A program made the position numbers and the translations under genes. The notes beneath the pieces were generated by a model. The model did not search any database and was not told the DNA's origin. It worked only from the letters and a program-made list of their open reading frames with translations. From NCBI GenBank assembly GCA_964608995.1, contig CAZSQS010000001.1:25143-89142 (forward strand): a stretch of 64,000 nt of DNA, in the 5' to 3' direction. The DNA is from an uncultured Smithella sp. GTDB taxonomy: Bacteria > Desulfobacterota > Syntrophia > Syntrophales > Smithellaceae. Shown piece after piece: positions 1,632-64,000 of the stretch (within the stretch, counting starts at the first letter, position 1; each line of letters opens with the position of its first letter).

Positions 1632-2180
1632 TCACGCTTTTTCAAAGTGGTGATAATCCTTCGGCTGATCGAAATTGCCGCCCCAGTGCCAGCCGCGCCT
1701 TAAAAATTCACGGACAACGGGATGATCGCCGGTGAGCACGCCGGGGTTTTGCGGTTTGTAAGAAGCGCCTTCGGGGGCAATCAGGCCGGTGGGGTAGATG
1801 ACGGGATTTTGAACGGGGTTTAAGTCGAAGGCGCGTCCGAAGGCATGGAGCGAAAGTTTATTCGTGCCCGCAATGACGCGAAAATTAAACGACGAGGCGT
1901 TATTGTCGGCCATCGAGGCTTCGTCATCCCAGTCATAGGCGACAATCGGTTTGACCTTCCCTACGGGAAACTTCAGCTTTTCGATGAGTTCAAATATTTC
2001 ATAGATGTCCTCTTCGAGACTGGAATCGACGAGAACTTGACCCGAGTGGCGAAGGCCGTCGAAGGAATAGTAAAAAATATCGCAAAGCGATAACGCATCG
2101 ATAATTTCCAGCGGCGCGGGGCTTCCCTCCACAGTTTCGGCAAAGGTCAGATTGCTGTCGATGACAATGGGCTCAGGCAT
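1632..2180 (-). CDS. M15-family (VanX/VanY/LAS-type) zinc D-Ala-D-Ala peptidase
   Basis: SLHAFGRAFD matches the SxHxxGxAxD zinc motif. C-terminal WHWGGNF..DYHHFE. Overlaps the upstream gene by 8 nt. Confidence 0.7.
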   Translation of the reverse strand: MPEPIVIDSNLTFAETVEGSPAPLEIIDALSLCDIFYYSFDGLRHSGQVLVDSSLEEDIYEIFELIEKLKFPVGKVKPIVAYDWDDEASMADNNASSFNFRVIAGTNKLSLHAFGRAFDLNPVQNPVIYPTGLIAPEGASYKPQNPGVLTGDHPVVREFLRRGWHWGGNFDQPKDYHHFEKA

Positions 2181-4629
2181 GGGAATTCTCCGTCTGGATG
2201 AATTTTTTCAGGCTCTCCTGAAGCGCTTTTTTCTCCCACGAGACTTCGCGGTAGATGTCGCGCACGGTGGCGCAATCGAGGCGGTTAAAGTCTTTCAGCG
2301 CCGGAATCACGAGGACACCCGCAAGATCAATGGCGCCAGGAGAGACAAAAATGCGTTCCTCGCCTTCGGCGTAATACGCATCCGGCCGGTGTTTGGAGCG
2401 TAGAAAGGTCGTCAGCCGATAGCGGCCCTTTTCGTAAAAACAAAAAACATTACATGGCGGCTCCCCGGTTGTCGCAAGCGTCTTTTTCACGGTTTTGAGG
2501 AAGGCCTGAAATCTTTCCGCCAGAGAATTGGCGTTGGTCGCCTCCAGGACCACCATGGCGCGGTCATTTGCGTCCGGTACAAGAATTTGTACGGAATCCT
2601 CCTCTATATTCAATCGGGTCTTGGGGCTTTGCTTTATAAATGGGAGCGCGCCTGCGGGAATCATCTGAAAATGCAGATGGTCCGGCGCGGATGCGCCTGC
2701 CGCCGGGCCGTTGTAAAATACGGTGTAGGCAGGTGAGACGTCGCGGGCGATTTGTAAAAGCGTACCGAGAGAGGAGGCCAGATCCTGCGATCTGTGTTCG
2801 CGGCTGACCACGGTGAAGTGTCGATCAAATATCGGCGCGGGATTGCAAAGGATAAGGAAATCGCCCCGGTAGGTAAGAGCGTGCTGGTCGGGCGGCCGGT
2901 TTTTGTCGCATAAAAAACAGGGGCGACGTCGGATGGATTCCGGATCGACAGCGGCCCGGGCGCTGACGGCGCGCGCCGGGTTGAACTGCAATGTCACGCG
3001 ATAATTTCCGCAATCCAGCTCCCGCGTTTGAGTTTGATCTAGCGCTTGGCAGGCGGACAAAAGCGCGGGCCAGGAGCGTTTTTGGGATTCGAAAAAAGCC
3101 AGGCACAGCTCGGGCAAGGATGTCTCGCTTTTTCCGGGATATTCCGAAAAAAGGCTGGCCTGCGACGTCTCGCCGTAGGGAACGGTTTCAAACCGTTCCC
3201 TACACAGATTTTGTCTGACCGAAATTTCGAGTGTTCGAAGCCGGTCTTTGTAATAGTCGTTGAGGTTTTGCTTTTCAACGCAGAGGGCCGAATCGGTGTT
3301 GTCGGACCAGCGGCGGCAAAGATAGAGGCTTTCGTAGATCCGGCCGATTTTATACTCGCGCGTGAACTTAAGCGCCACGGCGTAATCTTCGCCATAGCTG
3401 ACGTTGGGAAAACCGGTTTGCCTGAGCGCCGCCACATCAAAGGCGCGCGGCGCGCCCATGCCGTTGATCCGAAGCAGGTTGTTATGACCGTTGGCTTTTG
3501 TCCATTCCCGGTGGTCGATGAGCCCCGGCGGGATCGGCTGAAGCTGCTCATTGACGAGTGTATAAGACCCGACGATCATGGCGTAAGGCCCGCGGCGGAG
3601 CTTGTCCACGATTTTTTGCAGAGTCTTGGGCGAGCTGTAAAGATCGTCGGAGTCGAGCTGAACGGCATAGCGGCCGCACAAAGAAGAGTAAACGGCTTCA
3701 TTCCAGCATCCGCCAATGCCCAGATCGCGCCTTGACGGCACAAGGACATGAACATGCGGGGAACGGGCGCTATATTTTTTCAGCACGCAGGCGGTGCCGT
3801 CCGTAGAGAAGTTGTCCACGACCAGAATGTTGAACGGAAAATCCGTCTCTTGCGACAGCGCGCTGTCGAGCGCCTCGCCAATGGTCTTTTTGCGATTGAA
3901 AACAGGAATGATGATACTGGCCTTCCACTGCTCGTCTTTTGGCGGCGCAAGCGTTGTGCGTGTGCGCTGCGGCAGCCAGGCCGAAATGCGCTTCAGGTAA
4001 GCCGTGGCAATCTTTTCGAGCTTTTTCTGGCGTGCGGCGTTTTCTTTGGCCACATAGGCAAAGTGCGCCTCTGACTTGATGCCTGCGTGCTTTGACTTGC
4101 GTATTTTCCTGGCCGACGCACGATACAAGTATTCCGGAAGATGAATCAGTTTGTGATCGATTGAGAGCTTCAGGCGCAGATCATACAGCGCCGTAGAGGG
4201 GTCGTTGGGCAGCGCGCCGTATCGTTGAATCGCCACGAAGATGGCTTTCGCGCAGAGGATATAAAAAGGGCCGAAGTTAAAATCGTCGCGAATTGCGCCC
4301 GTCTGGTAGTCGTTGAGCGGATGCGGCGTGAGAGCGCCTCCCGCATCCACCAGAAAATCTGCAAAGACCAGCCCCGCGCCCGTTTCGCGGGCGAGTGTTC
4401 TGAACCGGTCAAGCGAAAGCGCGTCGCAGGCAATATCAAAGGCCTCATCGGAGACCAGCAGATAGCCGCTCGTTAATTTTTTAAAAAATCCGGCGGGCCT
4501 GTGGATCTCGACGGGTGTGCCGGACATGATGGAACGCTGTGTGGAATCCGGCGGGCACAACAAGGTCTGATCATCCTCGGGGAGATGATAAAGAAGAGAT
4601 GTTCCCAATCGATAAAGGACAGGTTTCAT
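2173..4629 (-). CDS. multidomain protein: unknown N-terminal region + family-2 glycosyltransferase + C-terminal GalT/HIT-like (DUF4922-type) nucleotidyltransferase/phosphorylase domain
   Basis: GT2 signature IIIPVFNRKKTIGEALDSALSQ..NILVVDNFSTDGT..QLDSDD. C-terminal PDHLHFQMIP matches the HxHxQ histidine-triad-like motif. Confidence 0.7.
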   Translation of the reverse strand: MKPVLYRLGTSLLYHLPEDDQTLLCPPDSTQRSIMSGTPVEIHRPAGFFKKLTSGYLLVSDEAFDIACDALSLDRFRTLARETGAGLVFADFLVDAGGALTPHPLNDYQTGAIRDDFNFGPFYILCAKAIFVAIQRYGALPNDPSTALYDLRLKLSIDHKLIHLPEYLYRASARKIRKSKHAGIKSEAHFAYVAKENAARQKKLEKIATAYLKRISAWLPQRTRTTLAPPKDEQWKASIIIPVFNRKKTIGEALDSALSQETDFPFNILVVDNFSTDGTACVLKKYSARSPHVHVLVPSRRDLGIGGCWNEAVYSSLCGRYAVQLDSDDLYSSPKTLQKIVDKLRRGPYAMIVGSYTLVNEQLQPIPPGLIDHREWTKANGHNNLLRINGMGAPRAFDVAALRQTGFPNVSYGEDYAVALKFTREYKIGRIYESLYLCRRWSDNTDSALCVEKQNLNDYYKDRLRTLEISVRQNLCRERFETVPYGETSQASLFSEYPGKSETSLPELCLAFFESQKRSWPALLSACQALDQTQTRELDCGNYRVTLQFNPARAVSARAAVDPESIRRRPCFLCDKNRPPDQHALTYRGDFLILCNPAPIFDRHFTVVSREHRSQDLASSLGTLLQIARDVSPAYTVFYNGPAAGASAPDHLHFQMIPAGALPFIKQSPKTRLNIEEDSVQILVPDANDRAMVVLEATNANSLAERFQAFLKTVKKTLATTGEPPCNVFCFYEKGRYRLTTFLRSKHRPDAYYAEGEERIFVSPGAIDLAGVLVIPALKDFNRLDCATVRDIYREVSWEKKALQESLKKFIQTENSHA

Positions 4630-27811: not shown

Positions 27812-29164
27812 ATGATCCGATCCCTGTGGGGGAAGCTTTCCCGGTTCATTTCGGCCCATCCAGGCTGGTTTCTGTGCCTTTTGTCCTTCGCCGTTACTGT
27901 GGTCTATGTATTTTGCTTTACGGAATACTGGACCTACAACGACGACAGCGACGCGGGCGGTTACTGGTTTCGAGCCATTGCCCGGTTTGAAGGCGAGCAG
28001 TTCTCCGTCGATCAGTGGGTCATCTGGCCGCCGCTGTATCACATTATCCTGTCGTGGCTTTTCTATCCGATCAAGTTTCTCGGGCTCTGGGAACACAACC
28101 TGAGCATCATCATCTTTTTGCAGATTCTCTTGGGCAGCGTCAGCATCTACTTTCTGTATCAACTGCTGGTCCGGATTTTTCATAATAAAAAATTAAGTTT
28201 CGATGTTACCCTCTTCTATGTTTTCACCTATCCGGTTGTGTATCTGTATGCTTTTGTCTTTTCCGAAAATATTGCGCTGCCGCTGTTTATCATCGCGCTG
28301 AGTCTGGTGTTTTGCCATACGGACCAGAAGAAATATCTTTTTATCGCTGGGCTCCTCTTCGGCATCTCCATTGGTGTGCGGCCCGCTTTTGTGCTGTTTG
28401 TTCTTCCGGTGAATTTCTATATTTTTGCCTATCGGCACAAAGGGTGGGCCTGGGGAAACGCCGTGGCCTTCGGCATCGCCTTCACGCTCATTTTTTCGGC
28501 CGTTTCTCTGGAAAACTACCGCATCTCCAACGGCGCGGTGAAGGGCCTGGGCGCAAACGGCGGCCTTAATTTCTTTCTGGGCCAGTGCAAAGTGAGCGAG
28601 GTGAATTCCCGGTTTGACAACTGGTATTATATCATCGGCCCGCCCGGCTATGAGGAATACTATGGCAAACGTGTGTTCAATACCACCCATCCCATGTATG
28701 ATCAGGATTATTTTTATGATTTAGGAAAAAAATGCCTCAAAGAAAGAGATGGCGTGATCTGGGAGAATATCGACAAAATCAAATTTCTGTTCGTGGGGCA
28801 GTTGTTTCCCATTGTGCCGTCGGCGTTTGGCGTCTTGTTCTTTATTCCCATTTTTACGGTGATTATTACAGTTACGGCGATTTTGTCATTTTTCATCTGG
28901 CCGGTTCTCTGGGTGAGAAAATACGACCGCTCGCGGCAAAAAATATTATGGGTCTTCTGGAGTTTTATGTTCCTGACCTTCGTTATGGCGTTTTTCTTCC
29001 ATACCGAGCGCCGCTATATCTACAGCCTGATCTTTGTCATCTACGTCATGTTCTTCAGTGTCTTTGCCATTTCGTGGCCACCGTCGCTGGAGTGGATCCG
29101 TCGCTTTTTAGTTGGATCGCAAGACGGAAAAGATGAAACACAGGACGATACCCGTGCGTCTTGA
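27812..29164 (+). CDS. polytopic GT-C-type membrane glycosyltransferase (ArnT/PMT-like), paralog 2
   Basis: Multiple TM helices. The N-terminal region is collinear with 24822..26762 (YWFRAIARFEGEQFSVDQWVIWPPLYHI vs FWWRAIERLKGNTFEITQYWAWPPGYHI). Confidence 0.6.
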   Translation: MIRSLWGKLSRFISAHPGWFLCLLSFAVTVVYVFCFTEYWTYNDDSDAGGYWFRAIARFEGEQFSVDQWVIWPPLYHIILSWLFYPIKFLGLWEHNLSIIIFLQILLGSVSIYFLYQLLVRIFHNKKLSFDVTLFYVFTYPVVYLYAFVFSENIALPLFIIALSLVFCHTDQKKYLFIAGLLFGISIGVRPAFVLFVLPVNFYIFAYRHKGWAWGNAVAFGIAFTLIFSAVSLENYRISNGAVKGLGANGGLNFFLGQCKVSEVNSRFDNWYYIIGPPGYEEYYGKRVFNTTHPMYDQDYFYDLGKKCLKERDGVIWENIDKIKFLFVGQLFPIVPSAFGVLFFIPIFTVIITVTAILSFFIWPVLWVRKYDRSRQKILWVFWSFMFLTFVMAFFFHTERRYIYSLIFVIYVMFFSVFAISWPPSLEWIRRFLVGSQDGKDETQDDTRAS

Positions 29165-29261: not shown

Positions 29262-30890
29262 TTACTTTTTACTGACTTGATCCTTGAGCCGCTTGATATG
29301 GCCGCGGCCCAGGCCCTTCACTTCACAGCCGAGTTTCAGATATTGACGGATGCGATCATCATCGAGAATGCCGAAGCAGTCAATGACGGCGATGGGGTGT
29401 CCGGCCGCCTTGACGATTTTTTCCGGATCGAGGTTTAAATAGGCCTCATGCCGGACGGCCAAAACCAGTGCGTCAATGTTTTTGAGCGACGCATTGAGAT
29501 CCTTCTGGACGCGCAGGTCTTTGAGCTTTTTCTGGTTGCGGAAAAAGACCGCCTTGCCGTTATTGGGATAGTCGTCCTGATTTTCAAACTCGAACCAGTG
29601 ATCGACGTAGGGGTCGTGCACGCGGATTTCCGCGCCCATTTCGGTTAAACGGCGGATAAGGATTTCGGAGCCGCTGTAACGTGTGTCGCCCACGTCTTCG
29701 CGGTAGGACGCGCCCAGGATCAGCACCTCGGCGCTGGCGATGGGCAGGCTCATGTTGCGAAGCGCGTCGCGCACCAGCTGCGCTGCGTGCAGCGAGCGCG
29801 TGTCGTTGATGTCGATGGCCATGGGCGTCATTTTAAACGTGTCGTCTTCAAAGCCCAGAATGTGGCGGTTGGCCCAGACGCCCAGACCCCCGTCTTTCGG
29901 CAGGCAATAGCCGCCGATGCCGGGGCCGGGAAAAATCATGTTGGAATGCGTCGGACGCACCTTGATGGCTTTTATGACCTTCACCAGGTCCACGCCGTTT
30001 CGCTCGGCAAAGAGGCTCCATTCATCCAGAAACGCCAGAATCGTGGCGCGGTAACTGTTTTCCACGACTTTGGCGGTTTCGGATTCGATGGGCCGATCCA
30101 GAACGGTGAGCGGGAATTTTTTCGTGTTGAGCACTTCGTTTAAAAATTTCACCACCCGTTTTTTGGCCTCTTCATTCACGCCGGAGCAGACGCGCCAGAA
30201 GTCGCGGATGGAGGCGACGTAGTCGCGGCCCGGCATGACGCGCTCATAGCTGTGGGCGATGAGCGGATCGGTGGCGATGCCCCGCGCGCGGAAGACTTTG
30301 CGCATGGCCGGAAGCGCCACCTGCTCGGTGGTGCCGGGCGCAACGGTGGTTTCAATGAGCACCAGGCAATGCGCGGGAATGTGCCGGGCAATGATGTCAA
30401 ACGATTCTTCCAGCGCTGACATTTCCACGTGTCCGTTTCGGACATTGCCCAGTTCGTTTTTGGCGTAGTCGAGCTGCACATCCACCACGACCACGTCTGC
30501 GTGTTTCAGGACATCATAGACAAACGTGGCGACCAGCGTTTTCTTTTTCAGTACGCAGCGCCGGATCATCGGATCGACTTCGGGGTCTTCCGCCTTGACC
30601 GGCGAGATGCCTTCATTGAGCTTGGGAATTTTCCAGTAGCTTCGCGTGCTGGGCCGTTGCATGCCAATGACAAATTTTCCGGACTTCCCGCTCTCATCCG
30701 TTGTGTCGGCGATGATGGCCGCCATGACGGAGCCCACAAAGCCTACGCCCATGACCACGACCACTTCCTGCCCTTTTTTGCGGGCGGCCGCCACAAGCTT
30801 ATCGATGCGCGCGATTTCTTTTTTGTAATCTTCTTTTTTGGGGAGTGGATACTTGATGCCGTCGGGACTGATGGAAACAGATTGCGTCAT
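29262..30890 (-). CDS. nucleotide-sugar dehydrogenase (UDP-glucose/GDP-mannose dehydrogenase family; WecC/TviB-like)
   Basis: Rossmann VVVMGVGFVGSVMA and the catalytic-Cys motif GGYCLPKD. Confidence 0.85.
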   Translation of the reverse strand: MTQSVSISPDGIKYPLPKKEDYKKEIARIDKLVAAARKKGQEVVVVMGVGFVGSVMAAIIADTTDESGKSGKFVIGMQRPSTRSYWKIPKLNEGISPVKAEDPEVDPMIRRCVLKKKTLVATFVYDVLKHADVVVVDVQLDYAKNELGNVRNGHVEMSALEESFDIIARHIPAHCLVLIETTVAPGTTEQVALPAMRKVFRARGIATDPLIAHSYERVMPGRDYVASIRDFWRVCSGVNEEAKKRVVKFLNEVLNTKKFPLTVLDRPIESETAKVVENSYRATILAFLDEWSLFAERNGVDLVKVIKAIKVRPTHSNMIFPGPGIGGYCLPKDGGLGVWANRHILGFEDDTFKMTPMAIDINDTRSLHAAQLVRDALRNMSLPIASAEVLILGASYREDVGDTRYSGSEILIRRLTEMGAEIRVHDPYVDHWFEFENQDDYPNNGKAVFFRNQKKLKDLRVQKDLNASLKNIDALVLAVRHEAYLNLDPEKIVKAAGHPIAVIDCFGILDDDRIRQYLKLGCEVKGLGRGHIKRLKDQVSKK

Positions 30891-59298: not shown

Positions 59299-59691
59299 TC
59301 AGATCATTCCGATCAGGTTAAGCCCGAGGAAAAACGCGGCAAGCATCGTTATCATCGACAGACGCCCCAGCCAGCGGTGTAAAGGGCGAAGCGCCGGTTT
59401 CGGGGGCGCCTTTACCATATGAAGCCCCAAAGACAATATCAGCGCAATCCCCACAAGCGCGGCAAGCCCGATGCCCTGATGCAGCCCTGCCAGATGGGAT
59501 GAACCGGAACTTGCGACATGGGCAAACACCCCTGCAGCGCCCGCCCACAGAAGCGCGGTTCCCGCCGTATTGAATCCCCTGTGAATTTTCAGCCAGCTCT
59601 TTTTTTTTCGCCCCAGCATGGCCATGCTCACGCCGAAAACCAGACACAAAAGCGCGACGGTCATCAAGGACAGGTGAATAAGAATCAGCAT
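59299..59691 (-). CDS. four-helix integral membrane protein, unknown function
   Basis: Hydrophobicity pattern with several conserved-looking His. No diagnostic motif. Confidence 0.45.
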   Translation of the reverse strand: MLILIHLSLMTVALLCLVFGVSMAMLGRKKKSWLKIHRGFNTAGTALLWAGAAGVFAHVASSGSSHLAGLHQGIGLAALVGIALILSLGLHMVKAPPKPALRPLHRWLGRLSMITMLAAFFLGLNLIGMI

Positions 59692-59735
59692 GCGGCCAGG
59701 CTCCGAATCCGTTGAGGGATCTTTGTTTGCGTATC

Positions 59736-60575
59736 CTAAAGAATGATTTCCAATCCCTGATGCATGGCGAAGCAGTCCAGATCGGCGTGACTTTTGTCAA
59801 TCAATTCGCGGCAGCGGGCAATCATGGCGTCGATATCCTCATCGTGCCGGTCCTGATTGTGGTGAAACAGTCCCAGACGGGCAACGCCCGATTCAAGGGC
59901 AAGCCTCACCGCCTGTTCAATGGTGGAGTGCCCCCAGCCCCGGCGCTTCGGATATTCGTCATCACGGTATTCCGCGTCGTGAACCAGCAAATCCGCGCCG
60001 CGGGAAAATTCCAGGTAGTCTGTATAAGGCAGGCCGCCTTCGTGGATATGGCCCAGTTCATTGTCCGTCAGAAAGACGAAGCTGTGGCCGTTTTCTGTAA
60101 ACCGGTAGCCGGTTCCCTGGTTGGGATGCGAAAGCGCAATCGGTTCTATCGTCATCTCCCCTAACTGGTAATGTCCATTGCAGGTGTCTGAATAATCGAC
60201 GACGGCGTGGACCTCTTCGTAATTGACCGGAAAGTAAGGCGCGGACATGACGCGCGCGAGCATCTCGCGGATGGAATCCTGGGCGAAGGCGCATCCCCAC
60301 ACGGTCAGACGGGTTTTTTCAAAGTAGAGCGGTTTGAAAAAGGGAAACCCCATGATGTGATCCCAGTGGGCATGCGTCAGAAGCAAAGTGAAGTGTTGAA
60401 TGCCTTCCGCCATGAGTGCATTGCCGGCTTCGCGGATGCCCGATCCGGCATCGACGAGCAAAACATCTCCACGTGCATTGCGAATTTCCAGAGAGGTTGT
60501 GTTGCCGCCGTAACGTAAGTAGTTTTTTCCGGATACGGGAATGGAGCCTCTGGCTCCAAAGCAGCGTATGATCAT
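59736..60575 (-). CDS. MBL-fold metallo-hydrolase
   Basis: LLLTHAHWDH (HxHxDH). Confidence 0.8.
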   Translation of the reverse strand: MIIRCFGARGSIPVSGKNYLRYGGNTTSLEIRNARGDVLLVDAGSGIREAGNALMAEGIQHFTLLLTHAHWDHIMGFPFFKPLYFEKTRLTVWGCAFAQDSIREMLARVMSAPYFPVNYEEVHAVVDYSDTCNGHYQLGEMTIEPIALSHPNQGTGYRFTENGHSFVFLTDNELGHIHEGGLPYTDYLEFSRGADLLVHDAEYRDDEYPKRRGWGHSTIEQAVRLALESGVARLGLFHHNQDRHDEDIDAMIARCRELIDKSHADLDCFAMHQGLEIIL

Positions 60576-60754
60576 GTTCCATCCTTTACGATGCCATTAT
60601 AACGCTATAATACTGAAATCCTGATTTTTTTCAAGCAGGAACTCATCCATGACGTTATCCCTTTTTTAAGCCTCAGGGGGCTTCGTCCGTTTACGGGACA
60701 TGCAACGCCGATGTTTGGGGATTAAAAAAGGGATGCGTCTGGAAGGAAGGGAAG

Positions 60755-60775
60755 CGGGCGGGGAGTCCCCGCCCG
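60755..60775 (-). terminator. GC-rich hairpin after hydrolase paralog 1
   Basis: CGGGCGGGG..CCCCGCCCG, 10 nt past the stop. On the minus strand a T-run follows about 25 nt later. Confidence 0.35.
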
Positions 60776-60784
60776 TCTTGAGGA

Positions 60785-61798
60785 TTACCAGTTTTTGTAC
60801 TGCGCCGTCCACTTGCCGCCGCAGAAATAGCAGTTGGCGCCAATGAACATGCTCTGACGATCTGTTTCATCAGCCAGATGCCAGCGCAGCCAGGCCGTCA
60901 TCGCGGAGAGCCCTTCGCGCGCGGCGTTGATGTGATCCACGCCATCGAGGATCCCGTACCAGACGGGCACGGTCGTGTTGCGGTAATCGCGAGCGACATT
61001 CGAGCTCGAAAGCGTATCGGCCGATCCGACAAAATACATCGTCGGGTTGCTAAGCTTTGTGGGGCCGTTGCCGTCGAACGATCCGCCGCCGCAGTGAATT
61101 GTGGTGGAAAGTCGCGAGTCATTGGCAATGGCAAAGGTGGTGATGGACCCCATCGAATGCCCGCCCGCCGCAATTCTGGTGGTGTCGAGCTTGCCATAGT
61201 AAGCGCTTGAGCTGCGACCGTTTTGCGTAATCAGCCAGTCCATCGCGGCGGTCATTTCCGTGCCGTCGCCGGTGGAGACTTCACTATAGACGACAAATCC
61301 ATGCGACGCGATTCGCTTCAGATGATCTTCGTAATCGGCCGGCTCAGATCCGCCGCCCGGGCCCCAGATGAAAATGGGGTGTTTGGAAACGCCCTGGCTT
61401 CCCAGGCTGGAGGGTCTCACCACCCAGCCTTCGCGGCCGGGCCCGGTGCTTTTGTCGATGGTGGTTGCAAACGGGCCATTGGTTTCAATGCTTGATACGG
61501 CCGGCAGGATACCGCCGCCGGAGCTGGAAGACGAGGACGACGAAGATGACGAGCTCGATGATGAAGAGGAAGTGTTAAACCACCACGACCCGGAGGAAGA
61601 TGAACTTGACGATGAAGAACTGCTGGTGGAGAACCACCACGACCCGGAGGTGGAAGAACTGGAGGAAGAACTCGAAGACGAAGAGCTGCTGGAGCTCCAC
61701 CACCATTGCGCGTTACCGGTTGACACAAACATGCCCGTGATGAACAGGCACACCGCCACTGAAAGTGTAAGCTTCCGTATTAATTTTTTTCTGTCCAT
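60785..61798 (-). CDS. secreted PETase/cutinase-like alpha/beta hydrolase with N-terminal Trp/poly-Ser module (paralog 1)
   Basis: Signal peptide ..TGNA-QWWW. W/S module at 61511-61708. The catalytic domain is collinear with remembered IsPETase/Thermobifida cutinase blocks (IASHGFVV; YGKLDTTRIAAGGHSMGS; GVDH; AWLRWHLADETDRQSMF; C-terminal Cys pair). Confidence 0.7.
   Translation of the reverse strand: MDRKKLIRKLTLSVAVCLFITGMFVSTGNAQWWWSSSSSSSSSSSSSSSTSGSWWFSTSSSSSSSSSSSGSWWFNTSSSSSSSSSSSSSSSSSGGGILPAVSSIETNGPFATTIDKSTGPGREGWVVRPSSLGSQGVSKHPIFIWGPGGGSEPADYEDHLKRIASHGFVVYSEVSTGDGTEMTAAMDWLITQNGRSSSAYYGKLDTTRIAAGGHSMGSITTFAIANDSRLSTTIHCGGGSFDGNGPTKLSNPTMYFVGSADTLSSSNVARDYRNTTVPVWYGILDGVDHINAAREGLSAMTAWLRWHLADETDRQSMFIGANCYFCGGKWTAQYKNW
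61511..61708 (-). repeat. coding low-complexity module QWWW-S16-TSGSWWF-STS11-GSWWF-NTS17-GGG
   Basis: Read from the translation. The Ser runs use mixed TCN and AGC codons. Confidence 0.8.
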
Positions 61799-61830
61799 GA
61801 AAAATACCTTCCTTTGTCAGCTTGTTGACA

Positions 61831-61853
61831 GCGGGCGGGAAAAACCCGCCCGC
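61831..61853 (-). terminator. GC-rich hairpin between the two hydrolase paralogs
   Basis: GCGGGCGGG-aaaaa-CCCGCCCGC, 10 nt past the stop of paralog 2. No T-run on the minus strand. Confidence 0.3.
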
Positions 61854-61862
61854 TTTGTCAAA

Positions 61863-62867
61863 TCACCAGTTTTTGTACTGGACATCCCACATGCCGCTGC
61901 AGAAATAGCAGTTGGAGCTGATAAACATGCTCTTGCGGGAGGTTTCATCGGCGATCTGCCAGCGCAGCCAGGCGGTAATGGCCGGCAGCGCCTCGCGCGC
62001 CGCGCTGATGTGATCCACGCCGTCCATTTCGCCAGACCACACCGGTACCGTGGTGTTGCGGTAGTCGCGCTGCACATTGGACAGGGCCGCGGAATCTTCC
62101 GTGCCCACGACATACAGAGCTGGCTTACGCAAATTTTTAGGACCATTGCCGTCAAAAGAACCGCCGGCGACATGAATGGTGGTTTTCAGGCGCGAGTCGG
62201 TGGCAATGGCAAACGTGGCGATCGATCCGCGGGAATGGCCGCCCGCCGCGATCCGGGTTGTGTCGAGTTTGCCGTAGTATTTGCTGGAGGAGGTGCCGTT
62301 TTCTTTAATCAGCCAGTTCAGGGCGTTGGTCATCTCCGAGCCGCTGTTGGAGGACACTTCAGAATAAACGACGAAGCCATGCGACGCCCAGCGTCTCAAG
62401 TGATCTTCGTAGCTGCTCGGTGTCGAACCTGCGCCGGGGCCCCAGATAAAGATGGGATGTTTGGACACGCCCTGGCTGCCAAGCGTTGTGGGACGAGCTA
62501 CCCAGCCGGATCGGCTGGAGCCGACATTTTTGTCGATCGTGACCGCAAAAGGTCCTGTAGTTTCAATGCTGGATACCGCGGGCAAAACGCCGCCGCTTCC
62601 CGAGGAGCTCGACGAGGAGCTTGATGAGGAGCTCGATGACGAAGAGGAGGTGTTAAACCACCACGACCCGGAGGAGGATGAACTGGACGAAGAGGAGGTG
62701 TTAAACCACCACGAGCCGGAGGTGGAAGAACTCGAGGAAGAACTCGAAGACGAAGAACTGCTGGTGCTCCACCACCACTGAGCGTTAACCGTTGACACAA
62801 ACATACCCGTCATCAACAGGCATGCAAGAGCGATCATGATCAATTGCCGCTTTGATTTTTTTTCCAT
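61863..62867 (-). CDS. secreted PETase/cutinase-like alpha/beta hydrolase with N-terminal Trp/poly-Ser module (paralog 2)
   Basis: Same architecture as paralog 1, with nucleophile elbow GGHSRGS. W/S module at 62586-62780. Confidence 0.7.
   Translation of the reverse strand: MEKKSKRQLIMIALACLLMTGMFVSTVNAQWWWSTSSSSSSSSSSSSSTSGSWWFNTSSSSSSSSSGSWWFNTSSSSSSSSSSSSSSSSGSGGVLPAVSSIETTGPFAVTIDKNVGSSRSGWVARPTTLGSQGVSKHPIFIWGPGAGSTPSSYEDHLRRWASHGFVVYSEVSSNSGSEMTNALNWLIKENGTSSSKYYGKLDTTRIAAGGHSRGSIATFAIATDSRLKTTIHVAGGSFDGNGPKNLRKPALYVVGTEDSAALSNVQRDYRNTTVPVWSGEMDGVDHISAAREALPAITAWLRWQIADETSRKSMFISSNCYFCSGMWDVQYKNW
62586..62780 (-). repeat. coding low-complexity module QWWW-poly-S-SGSWWF-poly-S-GSWWF-poly-S
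   Basis: Read from the translation. Confidence 0.8.
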
Positions 62868-63152
62868 AAAAAACCTTCCCCTTTCAACAACATCTGTTGT
62901 TTTGTATATTGAATTGTTGCGCAGGGATCGAAATCATTAATCCGTATGATTTGAAGCCTGCTCCCCTGTACGCATTTCACCTTTCCGTCCGCGCACTTTA
63001 ACCTCCCGGACGCGGCGCTTCGGTTGGCCTTTTTTGCGTTGGTCGCTTCCGGGAAGCGCCATTTCTTTATTTTCACCTCCTCGCCAGATTTCTTTCGTAT
63101 TTCGGTTTGTTTCGTCATCCGATAAATCATTCCGTTATGCGATACAATATTT

Positions 63153-63168
63153 TGCATTATTTGTGCCA
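63153..63168 (-). promoter_or_regulatory. sigma-54 promoter (minus strand TGGCAC-AAATA-ATGCA)
   Basis: The reverse complement of TGCATTATTTGTGCCA has a perfect -24 TGGCAC and a -12 TGCA at canonical spacing. It points toward the hydrolase genes. Confidence 0.55.
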
Positions 63169-63335: not shown

Positions 63336-64000
63336 ATGCCGATTGCCTTTCAAAAATTCGTAGAGAATCTGTCGGCGCGACAGGCGCTGCAGCAAATATC
63401 GCCCCTTGAAGAAAAATTTATAAATATCAAGCTCGAATGGGAAAAATTCGTTGCCGGCAAGGACGACATCGACACCTGCGTTGTCCCGGAAGAGATTCTT
63501 GCGTCATGGCGATCTTATCGCCTTGTGCACATGGACGCCGCGACGCAGGAGCTTCCGAATTTCCGCATCCTCCGGGGCGGTGACTTGGCGGATTTACTGG
63601 CGGTTAATCACGAATTCATAGACTTAAGCCGGCCCTTTCTGGACAATCTTTATGAATTTATGAAAGATTCCGGATTTGCCATTGTGCTGTTCGATGCCCG
63701 CGGGTTTATTCTGGATGCCCGCCATGATGAAAAATACCTGGAAACGCATCAGTTTTCACGCTGGTCGCCGGGGGTGCAATGGAGCGAGAGGATCGCCGGC
63801 AATAATATCATTTCCTTTATCCTGGCGTCGAAAAAGCCCTGTCAGCTCTTCGGTCCGCACCACTATATGCAGATGTATCACTACGTGACCGCGTCCGGCG
63901 CGCCGATCTTCAATCCCGACGGTGAGCTCATCGGCGGCATTGCCATGTCTTCCCACCTGTATGCCTCCAATGATCACACGCTGGGCATGGCGGTTGCCGC
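63336..64000 (+). CDS. AcoR-like sigma-54-dependent activator, N-terminal sensor (GAF-like) part only; runs off the window
   Basis: Open frame from ATG 63336 to the window end with no stop (not in the ORF track). The pattern EEILASWRS..FAIVLFDARGFILDA..PGVQWSERIAGNNIIS..TASGAPIFNPDGELIGGIAMS resembles AcoR-family N-termini (G..WSE...GTNAIGT...TCSAAPI.D..G...GVLD.S). Confidence 0.6.
   Translation, partial: MPIAFQKFVENLSARQALQQISPLEEKFINIKLEWEKFVAGKDDIDTCVVPEEILASWRSYRLVHMDAATQELPNFRILRGGDLADLLAVNHEFIDLSRPFLDNLYEFMKDSGFAIVLFDARGFILDARHDEKYLETHQFSRWSPGVQWSERIAGNNIISFILASKKPCQLFGPHHYMQMYHYVTASGAPIFNPDGELIGGIAMSSHLYASNDHTLGMAVA

Follow-up and report, generated by a model that had tools for sequence, protein, structure and literature searches.

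A tandem pair of secreted PETase-family hydrolases from a Smithellaceae syntroph carries a tryptophan-cluster/polyserine module at the mature N-terminus

Results and Discussion

A tandem gene pair encodes exported hydrolases with a repetitive N-terminus

We analysed a 64,000-nucleotide (nt) stretch of DNA from an uncultured Smithella sp. (GenBank assembly GCA_964608995.1, contig CAZSQS010000001.1, positions 25,143 to 89,142 of the forward strand), referred to below as the window. Two adjacent genes on its minus strand, designated B and A in the order in which they are read, encode secreted hydrolases of the PETase family in which a module of tryptophan clusters and polyserine runs lies between the signal peptide and the catalytic domain. 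The two proteins are 75% identical and their genes are arranged head to tail, in agreement with the tandem paralogues that had been recognized in an earlier inspection of the DNA (the sequence-only reading). The features of the pair are as follows.

61863..62867, minus: gene B, first of the pair; open reading frame (ORF) for a 334-aa secreted PETase-family hydrolase
62874-62881, minus: ribosome-binding site of gene B, GGGGAAGG, read from the sequence
62781..62867, minus: predicted signal peptide of B, residues 1-29, ending VNA before Q
62589..62780, minus: Trp/polyserine module of B, residues 30-93
61866..62588, minus: catalytic alpha/beta-hydrolase domain of B, 241 aa
60785..61798, minus: gene A, second of the pair; ORF for a 337-aa secreted PETase-family hydrolase
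61807..61812, minus: ribosome-binding site of gene A, GGAAGG, 8 nt 5′ of the ATG, read from the sequence
61709..61798, minus: predicted signal peptide of A, residues 1-30, ending GNA before Q
61511..61708, minus: Trp/polyserine module of A, residues 31-96
60788..61510, minus: catalytic alpha/beta-hydrolase domain of A, 241 aa

Both N-termini have the attributes of Sec signal peptides processed by signal peptidase I, namely a basic n-region (MDRKKLIRK and MEKKSKRQ), a hydrophobic core with its hydropathy peak at residues 10-25, and small residues at positions -3 and -1. They are also homologous to the signal peptides of relatives that lack the module (P0002 and P0005), and on the basis of this homology and the -3/-1 rule we infer that cleavage occurs before QWWW. 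Lipoprotein processing by signal peptidase II was considered and rejected because neither protein has a lipobox: the candidate cysteine of A follows VAV, with Val at -1 (VAV-C17), that of B follows ALA (ALA-C16) with a Lys and an Arg among the six preceding residues, and both Cys17 of A and Cys16 of B lie within the hydrophobic core.

The locus containing both genes was recovered in contigs assembled independently from six sequencing runs, at 99.9-100% identity and with zero indels. The exact lengths of the serine tracts are the same in all six assemblies, and the few single-nucleotide polymorphisms at the locus include none inside either module. Since six independent assemblies reproduce the tract lengths without an indel, the locus is not an assembly artefact.

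The module is an array, predicted to be unstructured, inserted at the signal-peptidase site

The module of A has the layout QWWW-S15-TSGS-WWF-ST-S11-GS-WWF-NT-S17-GGG, and that of B the layout QWWW-ST-S13-TSGS-WWF-NT-S9-GS-WWF-NT-S16-GSGG. Uninterrupted serine runs of 15, 11 and 17 residues in A, and of 13, 9 and 16 residues in B, are thus preceded in turn by WWW, WWF and WWF. Serine accounts for 67-71% of the 64-66 residues (71% in A), and the nine aromatic residues are gathered in three clusters. All nine aromatic positions are the same in the two paralogues, whereas the lengths of the serine runs differ. The sequence-only reading had described this threefold array and the shared Trp positions correctly. 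Its observation that serine codons are mixed also holds, although its list of codons (TCN and AGC) was incomplete, as the tracts interleave all six serine codons, AGT included. This mixture, and the recovery of the same sequence in six assemblies, led us to reject a slipped repeat or assembly artefact as the origin of the tracts.

In an AlphaFold model of A built on 53 sequences, the module is predicted to be disordered, with a predicted local distance difference test score (pLDDT) below 50 and no secondary structure across residues 22-92, while the catalytic domain (residues ~100-337) is modelled with pLDDT above 95. No Pfam or NCBIfam family matched the module region, where NCBIfam gave only sub-threshold low-complexity hits. 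Carbohydrate-binding modules (CBMs) of type A and polyhydroxyalkanoate-binding domains are autonomously folded and present a planar aromatic surface; with pLDDT below 50 and no family match, the module does not resemble them in this respect.

When the N-termini of A and B are aligned with those of the module-less homologues P0005, P0002 and P0003, the module corresponds to a single gap of 62-64 columns located at the signal-peptidase site. On one side of this gap lie homologous signal peptides (for example, MDRKKLIRK...CLFITGM versus MDRKSFRK...CLFLAGM), and on the other the homologous start of the mature enzyme, (G)G-(I/V)LPAVSSIE. The alignment indicates that the module is a clean insertion between signal peptide and catalytic domain. 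No further occurrence of WW[WF] followed by a serine run is present in the six-frame translation of the window, and a DNA pattern written for the array matches only the four junctions in A and B, with 0 matches in 100 shuffles.

The catalytic domain belongs to the PET hydrolase-like family

Both catalytic domains match the Pfam family PF12740, ‘PET hydrolase-like’: A scores 43.4 bits and B 47.4 bits, where the curated gathering threshold is 28. The catalytic triad is S215/D261/H289 in A, with Met216 following the nucleophile and an extra Cys236, and S212/D258/H286 in B, with Arg213 following the nucleophile. In the family alignment of 53 sequences, S215, D261 and H289 are invariant and the nucleophile resides in a G-H-S-x-G motif. 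The motifs noted in the sequence-only reading (ASHGFVV, GGHS(M/R)GS, GVDH, AWLRW and CYFC) are all present, the CYFC pair of A being C323/C326.

The closest sequences in the PDB are 9hl5, 9w68 and 9k0h (E = 1e-37) together with 2fx5, the Pseudomonas mendocina lipase/cutinase, whereas LCC, IsPETase and the Thermobifida enzymes rank lower, at E = 1e-6 to 1e-8. Structural ranking by Foldseek, whose top hits are PETases and cutinases, gives the same order: HaloPETase1 (9hl5) aligns at 36% identity with a root-mean-square deviation (rmsd) of 1.8 Å, followed by dsPETase05 (36%) and 2fx5 (31%), with IsPETase lower (~22% identity, ~3 Å) and the Thermobifida cutinases likewise at ~22%. The family search that the sequence-only reading had proposed as a check therefore upholds its assignment to the cutinase/PETase family but not the kinship it drew to IsPETase and the Thermobifida cutinases, as the nearest branch is that of the P. 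mendocina cutinase and HaloPETase1.

HaloPETase1 defines a proposed group of ‘type III’ PETases, characterized by T88 (no aromatic clamp), Q157 after the nucleophile and Y180, a subsite-I triplet described as strictly conserved in the group, and by disulfides C64-C126 and C273-C276 (PMC12442448). We mapped these features onto A and B through a HMMER alignment to 9hl5. Members of this group (9HL5, 9K0H, 2FX5 and R75estA) are the best matches in both sequence and structure (31-36% identity, rmsd 1.7-1.8 Å). They share with A and B the Ser-Asp-His triad in GHSxG, a non-aromatic residue at the clamp position (IsPETase Y87, HaloPETase1 T88; here Gly149 in A and Ala146 in B), and the position of the C-terminal CxxC disulfide (CYFC here, CDLC there). 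In place of the T/Q/Y triplet, however, are Gly or Ala, then Met216 (A) or Arg213 (B), then His235 (A) or His232 (B); the first disulfide is missing, with W125 and A185 at the positions of C64 and C126; and the four-residue ‘pfqp’ insertion before Y180 is also missing. Type III enzymes come from a marine aerobe, whereas the host here is an anaerobic syntroph, and no known type III enzyme has an N-terminal Trp/polyserine module. From these comparisons the domain is a member of PF12740 and a distant sister of the type III group that falls outside it. The missing subsite-I signature and disulfide mean that activity on polyethylene terephthalate (PET) is not implied, and because A and B have Gly/Ala and His where PET hydrolases have their aromatic substrate-clamp residues, ‘PETase’ is used here as a family label rather than as a statement of activity.

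After the nucleophile, A has the Met of classical cutinases, whereas B has the Arg that is the consensus of the clade. A also has an extra unpaired cysteine adjoining the conserved His235 (the residues compared being A216/B213 and A236/B233). There are hints, at the sequence level, that the two copies have diverged in function.

Homologues carry localization elements at the same position

None of the 120 closest homologues, syntenic relatives included, contains WW[WFY] or a run of five serines. What they carry in the slot occupied by the module varies. An extension of 111-200 residues is present in 63 of the 120, some have dockerins, and others, mostly of the Myxococcota type, have an apparent lipobox cysteine followed by a low-complexity tether rich in Gly, Ser, Ala and Asp; a few have the signal peptide alone. 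Given that beta-domains, dockerins and lipobox tethers occupy one position, the slot appears to serve localization across the family.

The extension of one homologue, P0009, is modelled as an all-beta domain of ~135 aa (residues 21-154, pLDDT above 90) that precedes the hydrolase, and a like extension occurs in about 63 of the 120. This domain matched no Pfam family, and a PDB profile search returned only insignificant beta-sandwich hits. We did not adopt the label of CBM for it, as the matches were insignificant and Foldseek on the full-length model was dominated by the hydrolase domain, but it is probably a targeting domain. The dockerin-bearing homologues come from anaerobes (P0016, P0024, P0057 and P0087), and two of them are fused to glycoside hydrolase family 11 (GH11) xylanase or carbohydrate esterase family 1 (CE1) modules. 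These fusions suggest that the hydrolase clade acts on plant cell-wall esters in cellulosome-like systems.

Gene callers disrupt the module-bearing genes

A phmmer search of the module against 1.84 billion representative proteins returned no true relative; its one match, P0121, was rejected as a junk translation of a ninefold tandem DNA repeat containing no polyserine. With a profile of the two modules, no match at E ≤ 10 was obtained among 5.8 billion proteins. These results bear out the earlier impression that the array is without precedent, with the qualification that protein databases are largely blind to modules of this kind.

The blind spot is evident from the Logan contigs, where the gene caller kept only 211 aa of A (P0001) and 152 aa of B and placed short acidic ORFs over the modules, on the other strand. 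Standard callers truncate the genes because the strand opposite a polyserine tract is itself an open, acidic ORF. No record of either full-length protein was found in protein databases. The ORFs concerned are listed below.

L001 (Logan contig), 102-353, minus: mis-called ORF
L001, 562-1020: mis-called ORF
L001, 1463-2098: mis-called ORF
L126 (Logan contig), 1-456, minus: mis-called ORF
61368-62624 of the window, plus: acidic opposite-strand ORF, 418 aa

As callers mis-call the polyserine region, the negative protein searches are weakened. Databases built from such calls would systematically lack polyserine modules, which may be commoner than is apparent. At the DNA level, a pattern for WW[WF]...Ser-like x8...WW[WF] gave at least 275 matches in genome contigs, and all those listed are out-of-frame (TGG)n-type repeats with stops; this pattern is too loose, since WSN also fits TGN. 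A tighter WWF...WWF scan of metagenome contigs yielded no positive among the matches listed, since in the few Ser-rich ones the frame stays open for no more than 24-82 aa and the real ORF is on the opposite strand. Protein searches thus found no relative of the module, and the search at the DNA level was not exhaustive.

These same calls raise the alternative that the module is an annotation artefact, with the true starts of A and B located downstream of it or the acidic plus-strand ORF representing the real gene, which is precisely what automatic callers reported. The shortened products, though, start inside the hydrolase core and lack the signal peptide that all close homologues possess, whereas the upstream ATGs are preceded by strong ribosome-binding sites and open signal peptides homologous to those of P0002 and P0005. 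Moreover, the indels between A and B are whole codons that keep the reading frame, and the six assemblies agree. We consider an artefact highly improbable, and rejected the 418-aa ORF as a gene on the grounds of the start signals and the preserved frame.

The module evolves under constraint and was apparently copied between the paralogues

Codon comparison of the two modules reveals 19 synonymous and 4 non-synonymous differences (dN 0.10, dS 0.56), compared with dN 0.21 and dS 1.26 for the catalytic domain; the resulting omega of about 0.18, computed on a codon alignment that is partly arbitrary within serine homopolymers, is the same for module and domain. This pattern indicates that the module is under purifying selection. 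Together with the mixing of six codons and the invariance of tract lengths over six assemblies, it also supports the proposal in the sequence-only reading that the serine tracts are maintained at the protein level.

A sliding-window comparison delimits a homogenised tract between the paralogues, covering residues 22-83.

61550..61735, minus: homogenised tract in A
62628-62807, minus: homogenised tract in B

Within this tract the nucleotide identity of A and B is 87-95%, versus 55-78% elsewhere, and third-position identity is 0.70-0.90 versus 0.25-0.6. In the catalytic domain, by comparison, B is as close to P0002 (75%) and P0005 (73%) as it is to A (73%). The module is therefore the part in which A and B are most alike, even though in their catalytic domains they resemble each other no more than they resemble module-less relatives, and it has apparently been copied from one paralogue to the other by gene conversion and kept in both. 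The module of B contains a 48-nt unit repeated 2.2 times at 91%, which shows that the module grew by tandem duplication of a 16-codon unit.

A hairpin follows each gene.

61825..61861, minus: stem-loop between B and A, TTGACAAAGCGGGCGGG-TTTTT-CCCGCCCGCTGTCAA, no U-tract; -29.6 kcal/mol, z = -4.5
60752..60779, minus: stem-loop 3′ of A, GACGGGCGGGG-ACT-CCCCGCCCGC; -23.8 kcal/mol

Each begins 10-11 nt past its stop codon and is more stable than all 200 shuffles, and no other hairpin of this kind occurs in the window. A search of the window against Rfam returned no match. The stem-loop after A is a probable terminator. The one between the genes is a candidate partial terminator or mRNA stabiliser that may only attenuate read-through. 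The hairpin of A is nearly identical to the one found 3′ of P0002, the second gene of a module-less tandem pair on the contig L002, where it is followed by a T-run; this near-identity implies that A and P0002 are positional orthologues. The most parsimonious history has the tandem duplication preceding the split from the L002 lineage, with the module arising later in one copy. As a near-identical hairpin follows the orthologous second gene of a relative without the module, the hairpins are terminator-type elements older than the module. The observation that each copy carries its own hairpin is thereby retained and refined.

A nearly neutral, recent expansion of low-complexity sequence with no function would also account for some of these observations, since the module is confined to one strain-level lineage, has no relatives that were found in protein searches, and grew by tandem duplication of the 16-codon unit. 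A sequence free of function would not be expected to keep its reading frame in each paralogue while synonymous changes outnumber non-synonymous ones 19:4, or to be retained after spreading by gene conversion. Its tract lengths are furthermore invariant in six samples, and interleaved serine codons resist slippage. We regard neutral expansion as decidedly improbable.

The pair appears to lie in a sigma-54-controlled lipolytic island

Upstream of B are a candidate promoter element and the start of a divergently oriented regulatory gene.

63153..63168, minus: sigma-54-type -24/-12 element TGGCAC-AAATA-ATGCA, 286 nt upstream of B
63336..64000, plus: start of the gene for a divergent GAF-domain sigma-54 activator, running off the window

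Aligned elements occur in relatives (TGGCAT-GGTGA-ATGCA at 8731-8746 of L002, and AGGCAT-GGGGG-ATGCA at ~5652-5667 of L249), so that the GG and GC cores (GG-N10-GC) are kept in three lineages while the spacers have diverged. The GAF ORF shares 67% identity with a full-length MimR_N/PAS/Sigma54_activat protein that holds the corresponding place on L002, a JGI contig on which the activator adjoins the tandem pair of module-less homologues P0005 and P0002. In a third lineage (P0003) the same activator stands beside a single hydrolase copy, which is followed by a Lipase_2 lipase. A GG-N10-GC element upstream and an adjacent sigma-54 activator are the features expected of a sigma-54 promoter, and the GAF activator probably regulates the A/B pair. 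A further conserved block, AAAATGCAA...TAATT, is located ~70 nt upstream and may be the binding site of the activator.

Syntenic lipolytic loci are present in L002 (1253-5298 and 11024-18376) and L249 (1304-3204 and 7202-8635), where they carry two CoA-transferase subunits, a patatin, a Lipase_2/Lipase_C lipase, several alpha/beta-hydrolases and a third PETase-family gene. Judging from this arrangement, A and B appear to reside in a sigma-54-controlled lipolytic island of a fatty-acid-oxidising syntroph.

The module might act as a multivalent tether to hydrophobic surfaces

The module is well supported as a real and unusual feature, a new kind of accessory element on a member of a known enzyme family. 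We favour a model, to which we assign a probability of roughly 0.4, in which the module is a fold-free multivalent tether that binds hydrophobic surfaces. In this model A and B would be Sec-exported serine esterases that travel beyond the periplasm. Their most likely task would be to free fatty or hydroxy-fatty acids from esters that are insoluble, for instance lipids, waxes, cutin or suberin, and aliphatic polyesters, substrates suggested by the placement of the genes in a lipolytic island. The WWW, WWF and WWF clusters would provide sticky contacts that partition into the hydrophobic ester surface. The polyserine runs would serve as hydrated, flexible spacers, keeping the clusters soluble and allowing them to bind jointly with the strength of three contacts, and the lid-less catalytic domain would thereby be concentrated at the substrate interface. 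The module would take the slot that is filled in homologues by a folded beta-domain, a dockerin or a lipid anchor.

Precedents exist for the aromatic part of this model. The Trp-rich loop of lipoprotein lipase (LPL) binds lipid and lipoproteins (PMC8319833), and an aromatic triad of a CBM2 (W9/W44/W63) drives binding to PET (PMC10577388), so that in both cases a few exposed tryptophans adsorb a hydrolase to a hydrophobic surface. In these proteins a folded domain, either a beta-sandwich CBM or a PLAT domain, displays the aromatic residues, whereas here they lie in a chain predicted to be disordered, and the analogy is one without homology. Engineered fusions of anchor peptides, hydrophobins or CBMs to cutinases and PET hydrolases apply the same idea, a surface binder on a flexible linker that raises adsorption (PMC10577388). 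Those fusions are laboratory constructs employing folded modules or amphipathic peptides, whereas the module described here is natural, repetitive, fold-free and N-terminal.

For the serine part, the closest parallel is provided by the polyserine linkers of 39-44 residues (~80% Ser) that are widespread among the secreted enzymes with which Teredinibacter, Saccharophagus and Cellvibrio degrade polymers (PMC2699552). In these Cellvibrionaceae (Teredinibacter turnerae, Saccharophagus degradans and Cellvibrio japonicus) the linkers are long tracts of nearly pure serine, and the enzymes that bear them attack insoluble polymers and include carbohydrate esterases (PMC2699552); in the module, serine makes up 67-71% and is split into runs by the aromatic clusters. 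The prevalence of such linkers in polymer-degrading enzymes argues for a passive role, in which the module would be a spacer of the polyserine-linker type, possibly O-glycosylated or cleaved as a propeptide, helping the enzyme to stay soluble, withstand proteases or fold while its tryptophans have no part in binding; an ORF for a PMT_2-family GT-C glycosyltransferase in the window (27812-29164, plus) would fit this role. However, the Cellvibrionaceae linkers lie between a catalytic domain and either a folded CBM or another catalytic domain, whereas the module has nothing folded N-terminal to it, only a signal peptide. Its serine runs are shorter (9-17 residues), are broken by aromatic triplets and lie at the mature N-terminus, and its host belongs to the Desulfobacterota. 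The glycosyltransferase is more than 30 kb distant, with no link found. Furthermore, the aromatic positions are fixed while the serine-run lengths vary, indicating that the aromatics are the constrained feature, and a purely passive stalk seems distinctly unlikely. Other sugar-related genes in the window encode a GT2+DUF4922 protein (2173-4629, minus) and a UDP-glucose dehydrogenase (29262-30890, minus), which are relevant only if the serines are O-glycosylated.

A further possibility is that the aromatic clusters insert in the outer membrane, lipopolysaccharide or another layer of the envelope, with the polyserine stalk spanning the envelope, such that an energy-limited syntroph would keep its enzyme and capture the fatty acids released. 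Tryptophan favours membrane interfaces, and some homologues carry at the same position either an apparent lipobox cysteine with a tether or dockerins, which hold an enzyme on a cell-bound scaffold. The LPL Trp-rich loop, moreover, also binds vesicle membranes (PMC8319833). On the other side, neither A nor B has a lipobox, clusters of three residues are weak anchors, and no link to an envelope-attachment system is present within the window. Retention at the cell surface is the main rival to the model that we favour and is made plausible by the homologues with lipobox tethers or dockerins, although we think it less likely.

Several points weigh against the tether to hydrophobic surfaces that we favour. 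No relative of the module was found in the protein searches, which confines its known conservation to one strain-level lineage; low-complexity insertions can be nearly neutral, and the arbitrariness of the codon alignment noted above makes the dN/dS figure weaker. The nine exposed aromatics might just as well attach to the cell envelope or cause the protein to self-associate. A Gram-negative host would need an additional secretion step, none being evident within the window, and the module could be removed as a propeptide.

A fuller version of the tether model is one that we put forward only tentatively. In it, the module would be an adhesion device of the ‘sticker-and-spacer’ type, natural and fold-free, that originated de novo at a polyesterase's mature N-terminus through tandem duplication of the 16-codon unit and then reached the paralogue by gene conversion. 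If true, enzymes of the cutinase/PETase family would have in it their first natural disordered module for substrate binding (or surface condensation), and it would be a member of a class of extracellular low-complexity modules that gene callers systematically miss. It would also be transferable as a minimal tag to hydrolases of PET, poly(butylene adipate-co-terephthalate) or polycaprolactone. Polyesterase engineering invests in attaching CBMs, hydrophobins and anchor peptides to lid-less cutinases to promote adhesion to plastic, and a natural, structure-free alternative of ~65 residues would be simple to transplant. Finally, such a device would imply that surface-targeted extracellular esterases are in use among obligately anaerobic syntrophs, a point of relevance to the turnover of lipids and polyesters in digesters.

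Neighbouring genes and host

The leucyl-tRNA synthetase encoded in the window shares 86-92% identity with sequences labelled Smithella or Smithellaceae, which agrees with the anaerobic lineage that had been supposed from the sequence, here a Smithellaceae syntroph. One of the source runs, SRR8925793, derives from a full-scale pig-manure biogas digester operated at ambient temperature (PMC13644194), and SRR8925803 also originates from pig-manure digester material. Other genes of the window encode rubrerythrin, an HGD-D dehydratase component, radical-SAM proteins and FeoB. Directly downstream of A (59299-60575, minus) are genes for a metallo-beta-lactamase (MBL)-fold hydrolase (Lactamase_B_2) and a cytochrome b561-like membrane protein, and the order A, MBL-fold hydrolase, cytochrome b561-like protein is kept on the Logan contigs, all of which are at least 99.9% identical to the window.

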